Sequence record: OQ721909
Direction: 5' to 3' (one strand)
DNA: 64,000 nucleotides
From: Escherichia phage vB_VIPECOOM01
Shown: piece by piece, positions 5,571-63,935 of the stretch
Position numbering within the stretch: position 1 is the stretch's first letter
How the letters are laid out: the number at the start of each line of letters is the position of its first letter
The notes under the pieces: model-generated
The model's input: only the letters and a program-made list of their open reading frames with translations
Told to the model about the DNA's origin: nothing
The model's database searches: none
Made by a program: the position numbers and the translations under genes

Positions 5571-5785
5571 TAATAAATTTCCTTCCAGTAAGTTGTGCCA
5601 TCTTCAGTAATTTCACGAAATACACCGTAAATCGGTTGTTTATCACCAACCTTTTCATACACATAAACCGAAGTCAAGTGAGTAAACTTAACAGTATGTT
5701 CCTTTTGAACCACTACCAAATCTGGATCGAATAATACATCTTCAAATTCGTCATTAGTGCATTTCTGAACAGTTTTACGTTTCAT
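5570..5785 (-). CDS. hypothetical protein (cef position)
   Basis: 71 aa, same length as T4 Cef; start overlaps upstream stop. Confidence 0.4.
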
Positions 5786-5798
5786 TACAATTTCCTCA

Positions 5799-6068
5799 TT
5801 AATTGAACAGTGGAGCGATGCGTTTCAGAAGAGTAGCAGCACCTTTGGCGAATTTTACATCATGAAAAACAGTTTCTTCTTCCGTTACAACACGAACTTT
5901 AATGTTTTCACAATCCCAATTTTTACGAACAATCTTCAAAAGCTGCAGTAAATCTTTACATTCAGCAATATCGATAACACATCCACGAGAATCTTCCATT
6001 ATCGCACGATAACCGTAAGCCGTACCATAATCGTTGAAAGATTGCTCGATGATAATTAAGTTTTCCAT
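5799..6068 (-). CDS. hypothetical protein
   Basis: ATG at 6068 with GGAG SD; track ORF starts at upstream TTG; preceded by the conserved promoter-leader cassette. Confidence 0.5.
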   Translation of the reverse strand: MENLIIIEQSFNDYGTAYGYRAIMEDSRGCVIDIAECKDLLQLLKIVRKNWDCENIKVRVVTEEETVFHDVKFAKGAATLLKRIAPLFN

Positions 6069-6080
6069 TTTATTCTCCAA

Positions 6081-6165
6081 GTTGTTTTCTGTATCAGTAG
6101 TTGATATTGATATAGTACCATAATCAACTACTGATGTATATAGTTTTATGAAAAAATTTTAAACT
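6081..6165 (-). promoter_or_regulatory. conserved promoter-leader cassette, copy A (diverged)
   Basis: UP-like AAAATTTTTTCA, -10 TACTAT, leader ending TTGGAGAATAAAATG; shared with copies at about 24739..24830 and 51978..52062. Confidence 0.5.
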
Positions 6166-6663
6166 TTATGCACAGCGAGCTTTGCTATAGTGTTTAATCC
6201 AACTTTCAGGAATGACTTTGTATGTTCCTAAAAATACCGCATTGTACAGCTTAACACCGTCTTCTACCCATTGATCGGTAATGTATGCACACATAGCACG
6301 AGTACGACGTTTTTGAACAACCCCTTCCTCATCTTCGGTAAATTCGAATTCATAAGGAGCAATGAACTTAATAGCCTGACCGAGTTTCCACTTAAAGTCT
6401 ACACCTACATGCGAAGTATCAATCGTTTCAATTCCTTTAGCAGGAATAGCTTTCAAAAACGCAGACTCAAGAAATTTCGCACGAACATAGCCAAACTGAG
6501 GTTTAGACTTTCCATCTTTAGGAATGATACGCACTTTTACTTCAGAATCTTCATCTTTAACGCCGTGTTTAAGCTGAATGCTTACAATTTCGACCAATTT
6601 TCCTGCTGCTTTAGAACGGGATTTATCAGATACACGAGCAATTTCACCAATATTAATAATCAT
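6166..6663 (-). CDS. hypothetical protein, possibly MotB-like
   Basis: 165 aa, close to T4 MotB length and position; C-terminus shared with 6740..7279. Confidence 0.4.
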   Translation of the reverse strand: MIINIGEIARVSDKSRSKAAGKLVEIVSIQLKHGVKDEDSEVKVRIIPKDGKSKPQFGYVRAKFLESAFLKAIPAKGIETIDTSHVGVDFKWKLGQAIKFIAPYEFEFTEDEEGVVQKRRTRAMCAYITDQWVEDGVKLYNAVFLGTYKVIPESWIKHYSKARCA

Positions 6664-17328: not shown

Positions 17329-17493
17329 TTACTCTTCTTTTTCTTTAGATTCCTCTTTTTTCTTTTTAGGAATCTGTTCAGGGCCTTTATTTACTACAGC
17401 ACCTGATGTTGTTCCAGTAGAGATATTTTCAGGATTACCGCCTGAATCTCCAGCTACCATATCTTCTTTAATAAATTCTTTATATGTTTTCAT
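17329..17493 (-). CDS. candidate capsid-targeted internal peptide (54 aa), missing from the ORF track
   Basis: Hand translation MKTYKEFIKEDMVAGDSGGNPENISTGTTSGAVVNKGPEQIPKKKKEESKEKEE; N-terminus matches the CTS of ipII/ipIII in this window; GAGG SD; frame checked. Confidence 0.45.
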   Translation of the reverse strand: MKTYKEFIKEDMVAGDSGGNPENISTGTTSGAVVNKGPEQIPKKKKEESKEKEE

Positions 17494-17494
17494 A

Positions 17495-17851
17495 TTAACC
17501 TCTATTCATAAAAGCATTAAAAATTTGGTCATCAATCGATGGAATAGCAACCTTTTCTACATCATTTAACAAATCATTAATTTCGTCAGATAGCATAACG
17601 CATGTACCTTTATTTCCTGTAATTGTTACTGCGCAATTACGAACGTTTTCTTTATCAAATTTTAGGTTAATATTTTCGTAGTGAAAATCCTTTAATGCCG
17701 AATATATTTTTAAAATGAAATTGTCTTTTACTACAATAAACCCAACCTCACTATTAAAACGTGGTTCATGGAAACTGTAATAAACCTTTTCATCTATAAA
17801 ATCGTATGAAATTTTTTCCATTTTTAAATATGAAAATTCAGAACTATACAT
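17495..17851 (-). CDS. hypothetical protein (61.1 position)
   Basis: 118 aa; last 12 codons and stop are nucleotide-identical to the next ORF. Confidence 0.45.
   Translation of the reverse strand: MYSSEFSYLKMEKISYDFIDEKVYYSFHEPRFNSEVGFIVVKDNFILKIYSALKDFHYENINLKFDKENVRNCAVTITGNKGTCVMLSDEINDLLNDVEKVAIPSIDDQIFNAFMNRG
17500..17536. repeat. 37-nt direct repeat, copy 1
   Basis: ctctattcataaaagcattaaaaatttggtcatcaat, identical to 17858..17894. Confidence 0.8.
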
Positions 17852-17852
17852 A

Positions 17853-18479
17853 CTAATCTCTATTCATAAAAGCATTAAAAATTTGGTCATCAATAGAAAC
17901 ATTCACTTTAGACTGTTTTTCTGATGTCAATTCATATCCGCATATTACAATTTTGTGATCAATATCAAAATATGCAGAAGCAATATGATTAATGATGTTT
18001 TCAGTAAAGTCTAAATCAACATCAATATCTTTTTGACCACAACCTAAAGGATAAATAATGCGAGTAATTCGATTATCTTTAACAAAGATTCCACCGACAT
18101 ACTCAGTGTTACGTTTAAAGTCTACACGCCGACGAAATGAAAAATATTCAGGCTCTTTATGAGCTCGGCTCATAGGACACAACGAGTAACTAGAGTAAGA
18201 GATGTCAAATCCTACGCCTTCAATATGAGCCAAAGTATCATGATTAAACCAATTATAATCGTACGCCAAGTCCATTAGATTATAATATGTAAAAGGCACC
18301 GGATTAACATCATTAGTCACAAGCATGTAATTAGCAACTGCTATAATTTCGTTGTTTTTAACGAATACAAACCGTGATTGATGCGAATGACCTGGACCCG
18401 CGTTTTCACGATTAATGATATAACACTGGGCACCTTTATATTTGTATGTATCTTTGCACTTGTGCATTTGATAGAGCAT
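17853..18479 (-). CDS. hypothetical protein (61.2 position)
   Basis: 208 aa; shares C-terminal SIDDQIFNAFMNR with 17495..17851. Confidence 0.45.
   Translation of the reverse strand: MLYQMHKCKDTYKYKGAQCYIINRENAGPGHSHQSRFVFVKNNEIIAVANYMLVTNDVNPVPFTYYNLMDLAYDYNWFNHDTLAHIEGVGFDISYSSYSLCPMSRAHKEPEYFSFRRRVDFKRNTEYVGGIFVKDNRITRIIYPLGCGQKDIDVDLDFTENIINHIASAYFDIDHKIVICGYELTSEKQSKVNVSIDDQIFNAFMNRD
17858..17894. repeat. 37-nt direct repeat, copy 2
   Basis: Identical to 17500..17536; encodes the shared C-terminus of the 61.1/61.2 ORFs. Confidence 0.8.
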
Positions 18480-24357: not shown

Positions 24358-24738
24358 TCACTTAGTCAAATTTTTTACACATGAATTATAAGAATTCACT
24401 ACATACTCCATCGGAGCATTTTTACCAGTACGCCACTGGTAATTATTAGCCCAATTTGCCCAAAGCACGGCGCAGTAGTTTTCAATTTTTTCTTCGCGTG
24501 TAATTACATCCGAATTACGATATGCTTGAGCAGATTCATCTGGACGAATAGCTTCGTCAAAATTCGCCTGCATTTGTTCTACTGTCTGTTTTGGAGCTTC
24601 TTTATAACACTTAACATTAGGATTATAAAATTTGCTTGAACAGTTTACAATTTTTCCTACATCAGACTGATTTACTACTGGTCCTTGAGCTACACAACCA
24701 GTAAGACCCAATGCAATAACCAAAATAGCGATTTTCAT
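24358..24738 (-). CDS. lipoprotein (imm.1 position)
   Basis: 126 aa from ATG at 24738; lipobox LGLTGC; track extension is translated promoter/leader. Confidence 0.5.
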   Translation of the reverse strand: MKIAILVIALGLTGCVAQGPVVNQSDVGKIVNCSSKFYNPNVKCYKEAPKQTVEQMQANFDEAIRPDESAQAYRNSDVITREEKIENYCAVLWANWANNYQWRTGKNAPMEYVVNSYNSCVKNLTK

Positions 24739-24830
24739 TTCATTCTCCAAATCCGCATCAGTTGATAGTTGTATAGTACCATGGAAGAACAGAGATGTAA
24801 ACAGTTTTGTGAAAAATTTTTTAATGAATT
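24739..24830 (-). promoter_or_regulatory. conserved promoter-leader cassette, copy B
   Basis: AAAAATTTTTCACAAAACTGTTTAC, 18 nt, TACTAT, leader CAACTATCAACTGATGCGGATTTGGAGAATGAAATG. Confidence 0.55.
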
Positions 24831-24890
24831 CCGGAGGTCCAGAATCATCTATTTTTCCTAAGTATAGATTTATATTACTTGTATGAAAAA

Positions 24891-24906
24891 GGGACCCGGA
24901 GGTCCC
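24891..24906 (-). terminator. tetraloop hairpin after gene 43
   Basis: GGGACC-UCCG-GGUCCC, 14 nt after the gene 43 stop. Confidence 0.5.
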
Positions 24907-24919
24907 TAGATTTATTCTA

Positions 24920-27616
24920 TCAGCCAAACAGGAAGTCTAACGAAGCTTTTTCCTCATAGTCCATACCTGCCGATTCACACATACCCGCAAGCGGTTTAAC
25001 AAACGATTTTTGGAACAAAGTTGAGTAGTCAATCCAAGACAGTACATCAGAACGAATTTCTTTTGGAAGTTCCGTACCCGACGGCCAAGCAATACACTTG
25101 TCACCAAATGGATTTCCCTCACGTAATGGAAGAACCATTACCTTATTTCCATCCAAAATTGGAGCTACACCTAAACCACTAACAGCTCGACGATAAGTTA
25201 GCACCCCACGAATGTGGAACGGGCATTTAAATCCTGGCCAACCTTTATCGTCATATTTCGCTATATCGTTCGCGGTTTTTACTTCAGCAATAACTTTATA
25301 ATCAAGTTGACGATATTCTTTCTCAAAGTTCTTGTAGTATTCTTGGACAGACTCTTCACCTTCTTGAAGAATACGACGAATACTTTCTTCGAGAGCTTCT
25401 TGTACTGCTTTTGGTGTTGAACTCTGCTGAGTTTCCATACCCATGATTTTTAGATGTGGTTCAGCAAATCGCTTATCTTCCATATCATAAACGTTCAGAG
25501 CATAACGTTTTTTCGCTTTCCAAAATCCACCGACGCCCTTTGAACCAAGTGGAGGGCAAGAAATAGCTTCACGGTCCATATGCATCAGATGCTCGCGGTT
25601 ATTCATATAATCACATAACTCACGATATGCAACATCAATCATAGGTTCCATCTTTTTCTTACCAAACTGATTCATAAATTCAACTAAATCATTTTGTTCT
25701 TTAAAGCGGTCAAGACCTACTTTTTCAATAACTTTATCTACGCAGACATATACCGAATCAGTATCACCTGCTGCGATGAAATCTTCACCATCAGTTCCAC
25801 ATACTTTATTCAGATATTCATTAATTTTACGAGCAATCCACTGAATACCAACTTGACCAAAAATTGTGATAGCAGTAGCATTTCGCAAATCATAATAGCG
25901 GAAATGAATGTTACCAAGAGCACCATAAAGACTGTTAATAAGAATTTTACGGTTCAGCTGATTTGTGTTAGCAAGTGTAGCTGCTTTTTCACATTCTTCG
26001 ATCAGACTATTAAGAACAGATTCGGTGTAATTCGACAATTCGTTTAAGAAATCATCATTGAACTTAACATATCGTTCAACTTCTGGTTTAGTTGAGCAAG
26101 ACCCTGCACCTTTCATAATAATCTTTTTAATAGCTTCGGCATTCATTTCTTCAGCGAACATTTTCTTTTTCCAGTCTTTACGCTGGAAAAATACTTTAGC
26201 GATTTCCTTTGGAATGATACCTTCTTGATGCTTATCATACATCCATCCATTCGGAGAACAAGAATATTCATCACTTGGCTTAGGAGCTGTTCCTGCGATG
26301 TATTCATGAATTGGATGAACTTTAAACTGTCCACGAATAGTTTCAGGACTAATGTTAACCTGACGAATAATGCTAGGATACAGAGACGTCAAGTCAAAAC
26401 TCATAATGTATCGACGAGCAATCGGTTTAGGTTCAAATACAAATGCACCTGGAAAACTCTGTTTAACGTGCGAACCTTGTTGAGGAATAACCTTGTGTTC
26501 ACCTTTCAACGAGTTAAAAATAATAGCATCCCAAGTTTTAATAGGACTCATTACGCCAGAAAAAGGCATTTTAGCATAATAAGACATACTTAAAACTAGA
26601 TCGATAAATCCACGAATTTTATCAATTGCTTGAACTGATTCTACGTCAATGATGTTATAACTAATGTATCGTTGATGATTAGTCTCACGAAGTTTATTAA
26701 TAGGACCGTCATATGGTAATTTACCTTTTTTGGTTTCATGTTGAGCAACTGATTCCAAAGAGAACGATGGCAAATTAGTAAATGCGAATTTTTTGTACAA
26801 ATCTAAATAATCAAGAATAGATACGCCATCAATAGAATAAATTTCTTTGCTACCGTACATATTTTGAATTAGTTTAGATTTTACTCGACCGATTGGAGAG
26901 AAGCGTTTCATACTACGTTCACCGAGAACCATTTTAACACGATTCATGATATACGGAACGTCAAATCCCTCAATATTCCAACCGGTAAAAATAGCAGGTC
27001 GTTTCTGTTCCCAGAGATTAATATATTCCATGAGCATATCACGCTCATTATCAAATGGCATATAAATTACTCGGTCAAGAATTTCTTGAGGAACTTCATC
27101 ACCGCCTTCACAGTCAAGTTTAGCAGCTAACTTTGCATCCCATTTTGATACTGAACCGTACATTGAATTCAACAAATCAAAGACGTAAAAACGGTCGTCA
27201 ATTGAATCATAATGAGTGATAGCATCAATTTCATATTCTGCTTTCATTGGGTCAGGAAATTTATCGCCAGTAACCTCAATGTCACAGTTAGCTACACGAA
27301 CAAATTTTCGATCATAAACAATTTCTGAACCATATGTATCACTGATATAAGCGAGTTTAAAATCGTTCATACCGAGAGCTTCGAGACCGATGTCTTCCAT
27401 TCGTTTCATCCAATCTCGGGCATCTTTCATTGATGGAAATTTTTGAGGAGCGCAATTTTTACCATAAATGTCTTTGTATTTTGATTCTTCCTTACAGTGT
27501 CTAAACATAGTCGGAAGATATTCTACTTCACGAGTACGTTCCTTTCCGTTTTCATCAATATAACGTTCAACAATATTATTTCCGACTGTTTCGATAGAGA
27601 TATAAAATTCTTTCAT
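24920..27616 (-). CDS. 43: DNA polymerase gp43 (family B)
   Basis: 898 aa as T4 gp43; ATG checked; operator hairpin upstream. Confidence 0.95.
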   Translation of the reverse strand: MKEFYISIETVGNNIVERYIDENGKERTREVEYLPTMFRHCKEESKYKDIYGKNCAPQKFPSMKDARDWMKRMEDIGLEALGMNDFKLAYISDTYGSEIVYDRKFVRVANCDIEVTGDKFPDPMKAEYEIDAITHYDSIDDRFYVFDLLNSMYGSVSKWDAKLAAKLDCEGGDEVPQEILDRVIYMPFDNERDMLMEYINLWEQKRPAIFTGWNIEGFDVPYIMNRVKMVLGERSMKRFSPIGRVKSKLIQNMYGSKEIYSIDGVSILDYLDLYKKFAFTNLPSFSLESVAQHETKKGKLPYDGPINKLRETNHQRYISYNIIDVESVQAIDKIRGFIDLVLSMSYYAKMPFSGVMSPIKTWDAIIFNSLKGEHKVIPQQGSHVKQSFPGAFVFEPKPIARRYIMSFDLTSLYPSIIRQVNISPETIRGQFKVHPIHEYIAGTAPKPSDEYSCSPNGWMYDKHQEGIIPKEIAKVFFQRKDWKKKMFAEEMNAEAIKKIIMKGAGSCSTKPEVERYVKFNDDFLNELSNYTESVLNSLIEECEKAATLANTNQLNRKILINSLYGALGNIHFRYYDLRNATAITIFGQVGIQWIARKINEYLNKVCGTDGEDFIAAGDTDSVYVCVDKVIEKVGLDRFKEQNDLVEFMNQFGKKKMEPMIDVAYRELCDYMNNREHLMHMDREAISCPPLGSKGVGGFWKAKKRYALNVYDMEDKRFAEPHLKIMGMETQQSSTPKAVQEALEESIRRILQEGEESVQEYYKNFEKEYRQLDYKVIAEVKTANDIAKYDDKGWPGFKCPFHIRGVLTYRRAVSGLGVAPILDGNKVMVLPLREGNPFGDKCIAWPSGTELPKEIRSDVLSWIDYSTLFQKSFVKPLAGMCESAGMDYEEKASLDFLFG

Positions 27617-49319: not shown

Positions 49320-49847
49320 TTATGCGAGTACCGTCTTTAACCGTTCTTCAAACTTCCGAAGAGTATTTTGGCGTTCAGCTCTTTGCTTTTTGTAAGTTTC
49401 AATACGCTCTGAAATGAGAGAGTATCGTTCATTTACTGATTCTTTCATAAAATCAGGAATTTCACGAGAAGCTTTAATCTCGTCAAATTTATCAATAACA
49501 GCTTGCTCTTCAGCAATTAAGTTATCATACATCAAAATATCTTTCTTGATGAACTCAATATCTTCTTGAGTTACACGAGATAATTTAGATGCTTTATCCT
49601 TTTTGTACTGTTCGTTAGTATCACGAGACCAGTGTAATGTACGATTTTTATTCGTATTTTTGTAAATTTCGACAATACCAATCTCATCAATAATAACGAT
49701 CCAATTCCAACGGGATTTGTAAATTTGTCCTCCATCAACAGTGATTTCACCTCCGATTGAGATGTCGTTAAAGAACTTACTCTGTGCTTCAGATTTAAAT
49801 TTACCATCGTTGTAATTTACCAAGTTGAAAATATCTTTAGCGTTCAT
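49320..49847 (-). CDS. hypothetical protein
   Basis: 175 aa; early promoter upstream. Confidence 0.45.
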   Translation of the reverse strand: MNAKDIFNLVNYNDGKFKSEAQSKFFNDISIGGEITVDGGQIYKSRWNWIVIIDEIGIVEIYKNTNKNRTLHWSRDTNEQYKKDKASKLSRVTQEDIEFIKKDILMYDNLIAEEQAVIDKFDEIKASREIPDFMKESVNERYSLISERIETYKKQRAERQNTLRKFEERLKTVLA

Positions 49848-49907
49848 TTTCTGTTCCTCCGTAGTTGATAGGGTAATAATACCACAGAGGAACAGTCTTG
49901 TAAACCA

Positions 49908-50213
49908 CTAAAAGAAACTTCTTTCACAATTTTTTCCACTGAACCATGCGCTTACCGCTTTCTTAGTCTCGGGAGCAGTGTGGTCCATAAACCATTCAAA
50001 GGCAGCCTTTTTATGATTCTGAAGGGCTTCTCGGGCTTTAATCTGCTCACGGTCTATTAACACTAACATATGAGCCTTTCTTGTCACCATGGGCTTCTTA
50101 TGATTTTTTGAATACTCCCAGTCATTTGTCCATCGCATTGTCGTTGCGAATTGAAATACTGCTTCTTTAATTTTAGTTTCGTAAATTTCACGAGCCTTTG
50201 AGTATAACATCAC
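49908..50213 (-). CDS. hypothetical protein
   Basis: 101-aa ORF. Confidence 0.4.
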   Translation of the reverse strand: MMLYSKAREIYETKIKEAVFQFATTMRWTNDWEYSKNHKKPMVTRKAHMLVLIDREQIKAREALQNHKKAAFEWFMDHTAPETKKAVSAWFSGKNCERSFF

Positions 50214-50292: not shown

Positions 50293-51012
50293 TTAGGATT
50301 CTTCTAAATGTCTTTTCTGAAAAGTTGATACCATACTACGATACGGTTCATTTGGATATCCGTGTTTTATAGCTTCCTTTGTAAATTTTCTCCATCCATA
50401 TTTAGTTTCTTTCCAAAGCTCGAATAATTCATCTTCATATTGCCATATAGTTAAATGAGAACGCTTTGCAGCTTTAATTCCATTAATATGCTTTTCTTTT
50501 ACTACAGGATTGCTTAGTTTCTTTTTAATAATATTACTAACTTTTCTAACAAAAGCTGGGTCCTTATATCGTTGTGAAGTTTTTATTGAAGTGTTTAATT
50601 TAGCTTCCGGCGTGGATGTGACCTCTTTCATCTTTTTCTTCATATGCTGTATATGATTAGGATTTTTCCATAAATTTATAGAATGCTTTTTGCATTTTAT
50701 CCTAGTTTCATCTGCAACCTTTCCTCCTTCACCCCCGTATGACAGGTTAACACAGTTTTTTCCATATTTCAATTTACCTGCCATGATATATAATATTTCA
50801 GCTTGTACCATTTTATCATAATTATCAAAAACTTCTAAAACCGTTTTTGATAATATGTGGTCATTTGACACTTTTACACGTTCTATATAATTTCCACTAC
50901 CAACATACGAATCATTGATGTTATTAGTTATATGTCGACCATAATAGTATTTCTTAATACCTGTCTTTAAATTTAATATTTCAGTTTTATAGATAGTAAA
51001 ATATTTTTTCAT
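50293..51012 (-). CDS. GIY-YIG-like (Seg-type) endonuclease candidate
   Basis: 239 aa; N-terminal IYK...GIKKYYYGRH...YVGSG resembles a GIY-YIG module; Lys-rich C-terminal half; ATGA overlap with upstream ATPase gene. Confidence 0.45.
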   Translation of the reverse strand: MKKYFTIYKTEILNLKTGIKKYYYGRHITNNINDSYVGSGNYIERVKVSNDHILSKTVLEVFDNYDKMVQAEILYIMAGKLKYGKNCVNLSYGGEGGKVADETRIKCKKHSINLWKNPNHIQHMKKKMKEVTSTPEAKLNTSIKTSQRYKDPAFVRKVSNIIKKKLSNPVVKEKHINGIKAAKRSHLTIWQYEDELFELWKETKYGWRKFTKEAIKHGYPNEPYRSMVSTFQKRHLEES

Positions 51013-51977
51013 TTTAATAATACCGTTTCAGCAATTTCTTCCCAACCGTTTTTGTCGGTCATAATAAAGTCAGCAAGATAAAGAGCAGTACGCAGTGAAA
51101 CATTGCGTAAACGATTAACATTAACTTTCATCCATGATAATGCTTTATAAGTTTCTTCATCAGAAAGACCGCGCTTTTGCATCATGTCAGTTGAAAGAAT
51201 AACATCTTCAACCCTGACCATAATTTCTTCATTAGTGTGAACACCCAAATCCAAATAAACTGAGCGGGACACTAATGCTTGTAAGTGTGGAGCAAGTTTA
51301 GTACCACGGTCTAATTCGCGGTCAATGTCAACGTTTGTGATAAAAACAATCGTTCCTTTAAATTCAAACTCACGCTCAATGCCTTTTTCTTCTAAGTAAG
51401 AAGACGCAGTGCTCCAGCAGACTTTACGGGTCTCTCCGGTGTCCAGAGCGGCTTTTAGAAGATTAAGAATATCCATATCAGAGAAAACATCCACATCATC
51501 AATCAAAAGGACAGAATTCTCTTCACGATTATTCCAAAGCTGCTCATAAAGACCAATACCAGAGATTTTACCATTAATGCTTTTATATTCAATGTATCCA
51601 ATATCATTTGCTTTATTTAAAGCTTTATCTAAAGAATACGTTTTACCAATACCTGCTGCGCCAGAGATAATTAATGAACGAATATTTCCATTAATAATAC
51701 CGTTCGTCATCATTCCCATAACATTAAATCTTTTATTAATGCGGGTTTTCATATCTTCATACGATTCTTTAACTTCTTCAACTTTTACACCATCATATGA
51801 AATATCTGATTTGTAAACCCAAACACCGCGACGTTTACCGTCAATTTCAACAAAAACTTTACCATCTCCTTGTGCATCTACCGGAGCATTATCTGGGAAC
51901 CATTCGCCTAAGAGCTCAAAAGTTCCAGAGATTTCTTTACCGAAGTAGATACCCTTATTGATAGTTACAGTTTTCAT
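51009..51977 (-). CDS. P-loop (AAA-like) ATPase
   Basis: 322 aa from ATG at 51977; Walker A GAAGIGKT, Walker B LLIDDVD; track extension is translated promoter/leader. Confidence 0.6.
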   Translation of the reverse strand: MKTVTINKGIYFGKEISGTFELLGEWFPDNAPVDAQGDGKVFVEIDGKRRGVWVYKSDISYDGVKVEEVKESYEDMKTRINKRFNVMGMMTNGIINGNIRSLIISGAAGIGKTYSLDKALNKANDIGYIEYKSINGKISGIGLYEQLWNNREENSVLLIDDVDVFSDMDILNLLKAALDTGETRKVCWSTASSYLEEKGIEREFEFKGTIVFITNVDIDRELDRGTKLAPHLQALVSRSVYLDLGVHTNEEIMVRVEDVILSTDMMQKRGLSDEETYKALSWMKVNVNRLRNVSLRTALYLADFIMTDKNGWEEIAETVLLK

Positions 51978-52062
51978 TTTATTCTCCAAATCCGTATCAG
52001 TTGATAGTTGTATAGTACCATAAAGCTTTATGCTTGTAAACTGTTTTGTGAAAAAATTTTGA
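51978..52062 (-). promoter_or_regulatory. conserved promoter-leader cassette, copy C
   Basis: About 40 nt of leader and -10 nearly identical to copy B; -35 GTTTAC; ends at the ATPase ATG. Confidence 0.55.
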
Positions 52063-52070
52063 AATAAAAA

Positions 52071-52088
52071 GGGAGCCCGAAGGCTCCC
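52071..52088 (-). terminator. UUCG hairpin after the NTase-like gene
   Basis: GGGAGCC-UUCG-GGCUCCC, 7-bp stem. Confidence 0.55.
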
Positions 52089-52090
52089 TA

Positions 52091-59729: not shown

Positions 59730-60191
59730 TCATTGAGTTTTAATTACTGCTTTAGAAGCCTTTCCCGGTAAACGACGACTGTTGATAATTGCCATCCTGC
59801 ACTGAAGTGACGGGTCTTTGAACTTCGCATTAGGTTTACAAACTGTAAATCCAAGCCAAAGATTTCCATCAGTGATTTCTAAACGCCCAGGACGATATTC
59901 AACCCCATCAATAAAATCCTCGTCAATGTCAGGACGCGGAGGCATATTCAGGAATTCATTAACTTCTAAAACATGGTCTTTTATTTTATGGAATAATTCA
60001 AAAACATATGTCTCATCAATCTCCCGTTGAATTGCACGATCAAGAAGATGCTGAGAATATTTTAGATGAAACGATGAGACTCCTGCTGCTTTTGATGCCT
60101 CACGAATCTCATTGTTAATTTGACGAAACTCCGACTCAAAGTGACGACGGAGTTTATTTCGACGGATAAAAACTTCTGTGTTGATAGTCAT
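59730..60191 (-). CDS. regB: endoribonuclease RegB
   Basis: 153 aa as T4 RegB; position. Confidence 0.75.
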   Translation of the reverse strand: MTINTEVFIRRNKLRRHFESEFRQINNEIREASKAAGVSSFHLKYSQHLLDRAIQREIDETYVFELFHKIKDHVLEVNEFLNMPPRPDIDEDFIDGVEYRPGRLEITDGNLWLGFTVCKPNAKFKDPSLQCRMAIINSRRLPGKASKAVIKTQ

Positions 60192-62815: not shown

Positions 62816-62872
62816 TTTACCTCTCCAAGTAATTATGAATATACTATCACAATTCTAGGAGAAAGTAAACTG

Positions 62873-63175
62873 TTATTTACCTTTAATTACTTTAGCTGCT
62901 TCGATAGCCGCTTGCTGAAGGTCATCCATAGACATACCGAATTTAGAAGCAAAGTTATCAATTTTCTTTTCGACAGCATTCAAAGGCTTGGCCTGTTTAC
63001 CTTCATTAGCGCCAGGAAGAGCGAGAATACGCTCTTTGTCAATATAAAGGCTTACAAGTTTCTTACGGTCTTTATCGGACAAATCATGAAATGAATGGGC
63101 CTTTTTATTTATAGCGGCTTCTAATTTACCTGCACTCACTCGCGCTTCAGCAATAAATTCTTGATATGTTTTCAT
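62873..63175 (-). CDS. ipII: internal protein II
   Basis: 100 aa as T4 IPII; CTS MKTYQEFIAEA. Confidence 0.85.
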   Translation of the reverse strand: MKTYQEFIAEARVSAGKLEAAINKKAHSFHDLSDKDRKKLVSLYIDKERILALPGANEGKQAKPLNAVEKKIDNFASKFGMSMDDLQQAAIEAAKVIKGK

Positions 63176-63221
63176 ATGTTTCCTTTAAATGTAAATAGTT
63201 TTATTCTTTAAGTTTGGGACA

Positions 63222-63283: not shown

Positions 63284-63862
63284 TTAAGAATTACCACGAG
63301 CTGCATTAGCAACGGCGTAAGCGTACTGAACATTAGCGTCTTTAAACGTACCTTTAGAGGTATCTAGTTCTGCCTTAAAGCCGCCTTTAGTCATAACATC
63401 GGCAAATTCTTTACGGAAAGCCATTGCATCAAGGCTTCTCCATGACGATTTGTGCTTGGCGAATTCAAGACCAGCGTAGTTGACAGCCTTAGCTAATTTA
63501 TTATCAATAACCCATTTACCTGCTTTAGGCACAAATACCGGGCCTTTCTGTTTAGAGAATAGTTTTAAATTCCAGCGACGAAGGTCACCGTCAGCTTTAA
63601 CAAAAGCTGCGTCCAAGTTACTAGCAACAACATCTTGAATATGGCCAAATTTAAGCCCATCAACTTCAATATTTAGATCGGTACGCCAGCGAAGTCCTTC
63701 CCAAGCGAAAGCTTTAAAGTCAGAAGCCTTTGTAGCTAAATACCGTTCAATAGTAGCTGTTTTAGGGTCAAAGCCGTTTCCTCGATAAGTCCACTCATCT
63801 TTATTAATTCCTTTGGCCTTTTCCACAGAAGCTTCAGCGATAAATTCTTTATACGTTTTCAT
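63284..63862 (-). CDS. ipIII: internal protein III
   Basis: 192 aa vs 194 aa in T4; CTS MKTYKEFIAEA. Confidence 0.85.
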   Translation of the reverse strand: MKTYKEFIAEASVEKAKGINKDEWTYRGNGFDPKTATIERYLATKASDFKAFAWEGLRWRTDLNIEVDGLKFGHIQDVVASNLDAAFVKADGDLRRWNLKLFSKQKGPVFVPKAGKWVIDNKLAKAVNYAGLEFAKHKSSWRSLDAMAFRKEFADVMTKGGFKAELDTSKGTFKDANVQYAYAVANAARGNS

Positions 63863-63935
63863 GTGTTTCCTTTAAATATTTTAATTAGTAACTGTGAATA
63901 TACTATCACAGTTCTAGAAGAAAGTAAACAACTTT

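Follow-up and report, generated by a model that had tools for sequence, protein, structure and literature searches.

Probable recombining early promoter and leader cassettes of the T4 type, ending in a RegB/S1-like site, ahead of unrelated genes in Escherichia phage vB_VIPECOOM03

In the genome of Escherichia phage vB_VIPECOOM03 (OM03; OQ721911.1, Tequatrovirus, T4-like), three unrelated genes are preceded by copies of one module of 85-100 nt. Each copy very probably corresponds to a T4-type immediate-early promoter joined to a short leader, predicted to be unstructured, and to a translation-initiation region of consensus type, and represents a recombining cassette of the PeSL type (promoter-early stem-loop, a name that comes from Krisch's group) with a candidate RegB site at its 3' end. 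The module is real, highly non-random and already known, being a textbook feature of T4-like genomes. The three copies, here called A, B and C, lie in the window, which comprises bases 1-64000 of OM03, and all coordinates, including those outside the window, refer to this genome. A 701-nt query around cassette A shows 100% identity to OQ721911.1 at the same coordinates, with about 500 other T4-like records also matching. Names of neighbouring genes were taken from the annotation and from comparison with T4 (AF158101). The sequence-only reading, which had first described a promoter and 5' leader module reused in front of three genes, was right about the places, since all three copies are present there on the minus strand, the strand that also holds all early genes here. 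It was right as well about the unrelatedness of the downstream genes. In Pfam, the product of the ORF behind A had no hit, that of the gene behind B matched DUF5481, and that of the gene behind C had weak AAA matches below threshold.

From 5' to 3' the module is composed of an A/T UP tract, GTTTAC at -36..-31, an unconserved spacer, TGnTACTAT, the start-site box CTATCAAC and the site GGAGAATAAAATG (Table 1). In the alignment, the UP element AAAATTTTTTCACAAAAC is kept in all copies and the extended -10 TGGTACTAT is invariant across 12/12 copies. The promoter scan bears out for B and C the proposed arrangement of GTTTAC, 18 nt and TACTAT, equivalent to TTTACA-17-TACTAT with a TG extended -10, and the GTTTAC-to-ATG promoter core of C is identical in T4. 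The near-identity claimed for B and C also holds, with 49/51 identical nucleotides (96%) in the stretch that begins at the extended -10 and runs beyond the ATG. Their UP tract and -35 are 84% similar, but no relation is seen between their 15-nt spacers (40% in an alignment with gaps, about the level between other unrelated spacers). A 34-nt pattern of the leader, searched with at most 3 mismatches allowed, matches B and C only and has 0 matches in 100 shuffles. Cassette A is diverged and has lost its -35, as had been noticed: with ATATAC for GTTTAC it matches the sigma-70 hexamers at 8/12 positions (TATACA for TTTACA), below the scan threshold, and its TGn, -10, start-site box and RBS are intact. 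The -35 of A is equally degenerate in T4, and with such a -35 cassette A may be a weak promoter.

Table 1. Positions of cassettes A, B and C, of their parts and of associated genes in OM03
Feature	Position	Strand	Remark
Cassette A, whole module	6066..6165	minus	Intergenic, motB stop codon to ATG of ORF 5799..6068; T4 counterpart between motB and cef
Neighbour of A: motB	6166..6663	minus	
Neighbour of A: 89-aa ORF	5799..6068	minus	Precedes cef
A: A/T-rich UP-like tract tttaaaattttttcataaaact	6142..6163	minus	Aligned with UP tracts of the other copies
A: degenerate -35	6135..6141	minus	ATATACA vs GTTTACA in the other copies; no sigma-70 match passes the scan
A: extended -10 TGGTACTAT	6112..6120	minus	Alignment
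A: start-site box ATATCAACT (CTATCAACT in B, C)	6099..6107	minus	Predicted start A at 6105, from -10 geometry
A: mid-leader, long form, family-specific ACTGATACAGAAAACAACTT	6079..6098	minus	Alignment
A: GGAGAATAAAA, Shine-Dalgarno and A-rich tract	6068..6078	minus	Exact T4 RegB/S1 11-nt consensus; ATG 6068..6066
Cassette B, whole module	24736..24826	minus	Upstream of imm.1-like lipoprotein gene 24358..24738
Neighbour of B, other side: gene 43 (DNA polymerase)	24920..27616		
B: terminator-like hairpin after gene 43	24890..24907	minus	Some 63 nt upstream of the A/T tract of B
B: -35 GTTTAC (-36..-31)	24797..24802	minus	Promoter scan
B: extended -10 TGGTACTAT	24773..24781	minus	Predicted start A at 24766, inside CTATCAACT (24760..24768)
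B: mid-leader, short form GATGCGGATTT	24749..24759	minus	Alignment
B: GGAGAATGAAA, RegB/S1-like	24738..24748	minus	G for A at position 8; ATG 24738..24736
Cassette C, whole module	51975..52066	minus	Between nrdC.11-like and nrdC.10-like (51009..51977) genes
C: terminator-like hairpin of upstream gene	52070..52089	minus	3 nt from A/T tract, the PeSL stem-loop arrangement
C: -35 GTTTAC	52036..52041	minus	Promoter scan
C: extended -10 TGGTACTAT	52012..52020	minus	Predicted start A at 52005, inside CTATCAACT (51999..52007)
C: mid-leader, short form GATACGGATTT	51988..51998	minus	Alignment
C: GGAGAATAAAA	51977..51987	minus	Exact RegB/S1 consensus; ATG 51977..51975
regB, endoribonuclease gene	59730..60191	minus	Product 151/153 identical (99%) to T4 RegB; presumed to act in trans on GGAG sites

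The three copies exist as described, but the family is larger than three: beyond the window this genome has at least two more full copies, D ahead of 67975..68238 and E ahead of 166415..166621, and the promoter half alone is common to two further promoters, at 162825 and 146005. The leader, first given as 30 nt, is 28 nt long in B and C and 37 nt in A when counted from the predicted start, and comes in two forms, short in B, C and E and long in A and D, which differ by a 3-nt and a 7-8-nt indel. Short mid-leaders read GAT(A/G)CGGATTT, long ones ACTGATACAGAAAA(A)CAACTT.

As to promoter class, Liebig and Ruger reportedly put forward in 1989 a consensus that covers both the early promoters of T4 and their ribosome-binding sites. 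A genome-wide scan of OM03 (GTTTAC-N-TGnTAnnnT) returns about 35 canonical early promoters, all of them on the minus strand, with the same picture in T4, and a GGAG/GAGG Shine-Dalgarno and an ATG are found within 25-50 nt of nearly all of them. Published T4 early promoters carry GTTTAC at -36..-31, an A-rich UP region and a GT-rich extended -10 (PMC1524935), and the class has been defined by UP, -35, TGn and -10 plus further consensus regions (PMC2988021). The cassettes resemble this class in having GTTTAC at -36..-31, an A-rich UP tract, a GT-rich TGn -10, a start-site consensus and a short leader ahead of a GGAG-type SD, and in the location of all copies on the early (counter-clockwise) strand; A departs from it in its -35. 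Spacing and consensus match make promoter activity with a start at the A of CTATCAAC most likely. Weaker forms of the UP tract, -35, TGn/-10 and start-site box are present in the genome's other ~30 early promoters, and in 29 early promoters outside the family the positions of the start-site box are kept as C-3 in 18/29, T-1 in 20/29, A+1 in 23/29, T+2 in 18/29, A+5 in 20/29 and T+7 in 19/29. Since the start-site box persists with the sub-family removed, the 'conserved leader' begins with a generic promoter element. The parts specific to the sub-family are the 10-20-nt mid-leader and the -10/start version TGGTACTATACAACTATCAACT; having one such version and a related mid-leader sets the sub-family apart from the general T4 early promoter consensus. 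In T4, motA has a promoter and leader of the same family. It is highly improbable that the sub-family TGGTACTATACAACTATCAACT(AC)TGATAC(A/G)G, found in T4 before motA, imm.1, nrdC.10, e.8, the ndd.6 region and cef, forms a distinct immediate-early regulon, in which the mid-leader or start-region DNA would be bound by a phage or host factor and the likeness would be kept by selection and not by recombination alone. A literature search for a genome-wide start-site dataset of T4 returned none.

At its 3' end the module carries a candidate switch-off signal. The sequence GGAGAATAAAA has 8 occurrences in the genome, 8/8 on the minus strand and each running into an ATG behind an early promoter, where about 1 match to a looser consensus is expected from shuffles. 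RegB/S1 sites have the general form GGAGRAYARAA with the T4 optimum GGAGAAUAAAA and an invariant GGA (PMC1702504), and the site must be single-stranded, with cleavage stimulated by ribosomal protein S1 (PMC1702504; PMC3014915). A and C equal GGAGAAUAAAA exactly, whereas B reads GGAGAAUGAAA, with its mismatch at position 8, which is one of the three most conserved A positions of the RegB consensus. Similar to the RegB/S1 sites of T4 early mRNAs (motA and motB leaders; Durand et al. 2006, Uzan & Miller 2010), the candidate 11-nt site falls within the translation-initiation region of an early message, where the RNA is predicted to be single-stranded, and regB itself lies in the window; the difference from the RegB/S1 consensus is the G of B at the conserved position.

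The sequence-only reading had explained conservation through the leader by a shared post-transcriptional operator, which is borne out at the RBS by the RegB/S1 consensus and finds no support in the mid-leader, which varies like the spacer. An operator peculiar to the leader is not upheld: what is conserved is the RBS and a start-site box generic to early promoters, and folding predicts no RNA structure. Folding of five leaders gave nothing more stable than shuffles (MFE -1.8 to -4.5 kcal/mol, z -0.5 to +1.2), and an Rfam scan of the whole window at gathering thresholds gave 0 hits. A palindrome, TATCA..TGATA, was considered as a leader structure and rejected: it straddles the predicted start, and its arm spacing is 2 vs 5 nt in the two leader forms.

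A stronger version of the operator idea would make the mid-leader (CUGAUACGGAUUU; long form CUACUGAUACAGAAAACAACUU) a dedicated post-transcriptional operator for RegA or another phage or host factor, co-regulating a subset of early genes that includes T4 motA, and this is quite unlikely. Its attraction is that B, C and E agree at 92-100% in the mid-leader despite their unrelated promoter spacers, that the same leader type stands before T4 motA, and that the surroundings of the AUG are A+U-rich and unstructured with a poly(A) tract, which are loose hallmarks of RegA sites (PMC3014915). However, mosaic combinations of promoter and leader (see below) account for the discordance between spacer and mid-leader without selection. 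Anchored scores against the RegA SELEX consensus AAAAUUGUUAUGUAA, which overlaps the AUG, are not separated either: the cassettes reach 5-6/12, the window's known targets dexA, 44 and 45 reach 3-6/12, and all 120 gene starts average 4.4 +/- 1.6. Because known targets, cassettes and average gene starts score alike, the SELEX match does not discriminate, and according to a review RegA sites have no clear consensus (PMC3014915). The shared operator that the sequence supports is the RegB site at the RBS; the sequence speaks neither for nor against RegA binding. The best RegA SELEX matches among the window's 120 gene starts are at 5785 (cef) and 19274 (dmd), both 9/12 anchored (GAGGAAATTGTAATG, GAGGAGATTGTTATG).

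Orthologues of locus B (n=14: OM03, T4, T2, fPS-90, slur03, G50, Pu-Krd-SF3, SG1, IME339 and five IMG/VR contigs) show which parts are constrained. IMG/VR yielded 6 exact-pattern loci and 5 imm.1 loci, all from close relatives, and GenBank phage records were taken instead. In these 14 phages the UP tract, -35, -10/start box and GGAGAAT(A/G)AAATG are almost invariant, and there are about 8 variants of the spacer and about 8 of the mid-leader (among them ctgatgcgg, ctactgatacgg, ctactgatacag, ctaatacgg, ccaatacag, ttgatacgg and ctgatatgg), while T2 has a wholly different leader. Within this closely related set, spacer and mid-leader are the most variable stretches of the gene 43 - imm.1 interval. 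Conservation beyond the promoter hexamers is seen in relatives at the start-site box and the RBS and not in the mid-leader. The mid-leader being as variable as the spacer argues against a mid-leader operator under strong selection; weak purifying selection on it may exist, given a small sample of 13-14 closely related phages. In the same interval, the ~55 nt from the gene 43 terminator to cassette B (~24835-24889) are near-invariant in 13 relatives, with two variable positions, and hold a weak sigma-70-like match, TTTTCA-17-TATACT.

Comparison of the copies with each other shows that likeness in the promoter half and likeness in the leader half do not go together. C and E are 100% identical in mid-leader and RBS with spacers at 53% (about the level of other unrelated spacers), and C and promoter F have 100% identical spacers with mid-leader and RBS at 45%. 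Between B and D the respective values are 87% for the spacer and 59% for mid-leader and RBS, and between A and D 60% and 97%. B, C and E have mutually unrelated 15-nt spacers, and the leader of promoter F resembles the leader of the OM03 motA promoter. Similar discordance exists between T4 and OM03: the frd.3 promoters have unrelated spacers (53%), the T4 frd.3 spacer being that of nrdC.10 and the OM03 one of the B/D type; the nrdC.8 promoter is TACTAT-acaactatc in T4 vs TATTAT-taccctatc in OM03; and T4 motA stands behind a promoter and leader of the family type, OM03 motA behind a different promoter and leader. The apparent breakpoints lie in the invariant -10/start block and at the RBS. Such mosaic combinations, among paralogues as well as T4/OM03 orthologues, fit recombination between copies.

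The proposal of recent promoter-cassette shuffling can be kept as far as the mosaic halves and the changes of the gene behind the cassette in relatives are concerned, but not as a 'recent' duplication of whole cassettes. That the copies are recent duplicates of one contiguous segment, alike without any functional or recombinational meaning, is scarcely credible: B and C are highly identical over 51 nt and C and E are identical from -10 to ATG, yet in B, C and E unrelated spacers sit between near-identical flanks, and the similarity of paralogous cassettes ends exactly at the ATG. Moreover, T4, T2 and further Tequatroviruses were found to carry the cassettes at the same loci, and hence the copies predate the divergence of these phages. 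There is also little to recommend, as a most improbable account, that the cassettes are att-like targets of site-specific recombination and not substrates of general homologous or microhomology recombination. The apparent crossovers do cluster in one invariant 18-nt block, but the annotation contains no cassette-associated recombinase, T4 recombines at homologies of 2-10 bp (PMC9391042), and the invariant block is at the same time the functional -10/start region, which would concentrate detectable crossovers anyway.

The ACT/ACTACT indel was tried as a marker of homogenisation and was not used as evidence, as other genomes mix the states and slippage at tandem ACT could recur. The extra ACT unit is missing from B, C and E in OM03 and from C only in T4, and this length difference could stem from replication slippage instead of conversion. 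Two side observations concern other promoters of this genome. An identical promoter core and leader (GTTTACAAGACTGTTCCTCTGTGGTATTAT taccctatcaactacggaggaacagaaaatg) stands before different genes at 49847-49930 and at genome positions 165903-165990, the T4 nrdC.8 orthologue having the TACTAT-acaactatc version in its place. Between motA.1 and motA (region 162413-162880), OM03 has an additional ORF of 75 aa (162518..162745), which has a C-type promoter.

Recombining elements of this layout have been described. A PeSL consists of an AT-rich region, an early promoter, an SD and start codon at the 3' edge and usually a stem-loop, with TTTACW-N17-TAYWAT as PST/T4 consensus (PMC4122927). PeSLs adjoin indels and replacements between close relatives (PMC4122927; PMC2839356), and their crossovers, which yield mini-circles, were mapped between -10 and SD/ATG (Arbiol 2010, PMC2839356). 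The cassettes share with PeSLs (Arbiol 2010, Comeau 2014) the A/T tract, the early promoter and the SD/ATG at the 3' edge, and copies likewise stand before unrelated small ORFs, beside indels or replacements and with apparent crossovers between -10 and SD/ATG. Measured against the PeSL composite, B and C conform with TTTACA-17-TACTAT followed by GGAG...ATG, and A is one base off in the -35 (TATACA). The stem-loop differs among them: C shows the full layout with an adjoining hairpin, the hairpin of B lies farther upstream (Table 1), and the promoter scan of locus A found no upstream hairpin there, such that A, with its degenerate -35 in addition, deviates from a strict PeSL layout. Unlike PeSLs in a classic hyperplastic region, B is situated in the core replication cluster (gene 43 - imm - 42).

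The PeSL authors trace the idea to the T-even internal-protein (IP) loci (Repoila 1994; PMC2839356, PMC4122927). With the flanking elements of those loci (Repoila 1994) the cassettes have in common that T4-early-promoter-based repeats border swappable genes. Whereas IP cassettes run into the coding region (MKTY.EFIAEA N-terminus), similarity among A, B and C ends at the ATG. The window has an IP-type example of its own, with IP locus promoters at 62828-62870 and 63887-63929 that are 91% identical. Together with the repeated leader and N-terminal coding stretches at 63144-63190 and 63831-63877 (91%), these promoters represent a second kind of cassette, with similarity into the coding region as described for T-even IP loci. 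Internal virion proteins are encoded at 62873..63175 (MKTYQEFIAEA) and 63284..63862 (MKTYKEFIAEA), and a 61.1-like ORF at 17329..17493 (minus) begins with MKTYKEFIKED, close to the capsid-targeting-type N-termini of internal virion proteins.

Taken as PeSL-type early cassettes, the copies suggest an order of events that we infer for promoter activity, start site, RegB cleavage and recombination pathway. Host sigma-70 RNA polymerase would bind the UP tract, GTTTAC (-36..-31) and TGnTACTAT and would start some 7 nt past the -10, at the A of CTATCAAC. The 28-37-nt leader, presumably single-stranded, would allow ribosome loading at GGAG, and RegB, once made, would together with ribosomal protein S1 cut inside GGAGAAUAAAA and turn the early message off. 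The likeness of the copies would have two reasons, namely common constraint on the functional blocks (UP/-35, TGn/-10/start-site box, RBS/RegB site) and recombination, through which the copies would swap segments by crossing over within the invariant TGGTACTATACAACTATC block and at the RBS/ATG. These swaps would at the same time insert, delete or replace the small early genes that directly follow a cassette. No new biology is involved; the cassettes are a worked example of how one standard promoter and RBS 'socket' expresses interchangeable early genes, of sockets probably recombining with each other and of an RBS that would carry the RegB/S1 switch-off signal. For annotation, such sites point to early transcription units and to messages that are likely sensitive to RegB, and flag loci of accessory-gene gain and loss behind motB, gene 43 and denB.

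Turnover behind the cassettes is visible at several loci. At locus A, T4 has kept the cassette and its 89-aa ORF has shrunk to an 11-codon deletion remnant; 212/506 matching records cover at least 80% of this locus. At locus B, the 14 phages present three downstream alternatives, which are imm.1, a 78-85-aa membrane-type ORF followed by imm.1, and a third ORF in T2. Locus E, outside the window, has in relatives an 80-87-aa ORF without T4 homologue. In the genomes examined, no gene replacement was seen at locus C. Near that locus, a homing-endonuclease gene at 50293..51012 overlaps the 3' end of the nrdC.10-like gene, and T4 is without an endonuclease between nrdC.9 and nrdC.10. Elsewhere in the window, a 49-nt direct repeat, 94% identical, occurs at 17491-17539 and 17849-17897, made up of a common C-terminus (SIDDQIFNAFMNRG/D*) and the SD-ATG junction of the adjacent ORFs 17495..17851 and 17853..18479. 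At the corresponding place T4 has gene 61.2 alone; the additional ORF or partial duplication of OM03, delimited by the repeat, would be a gene insertion at a non-promoter repeat.
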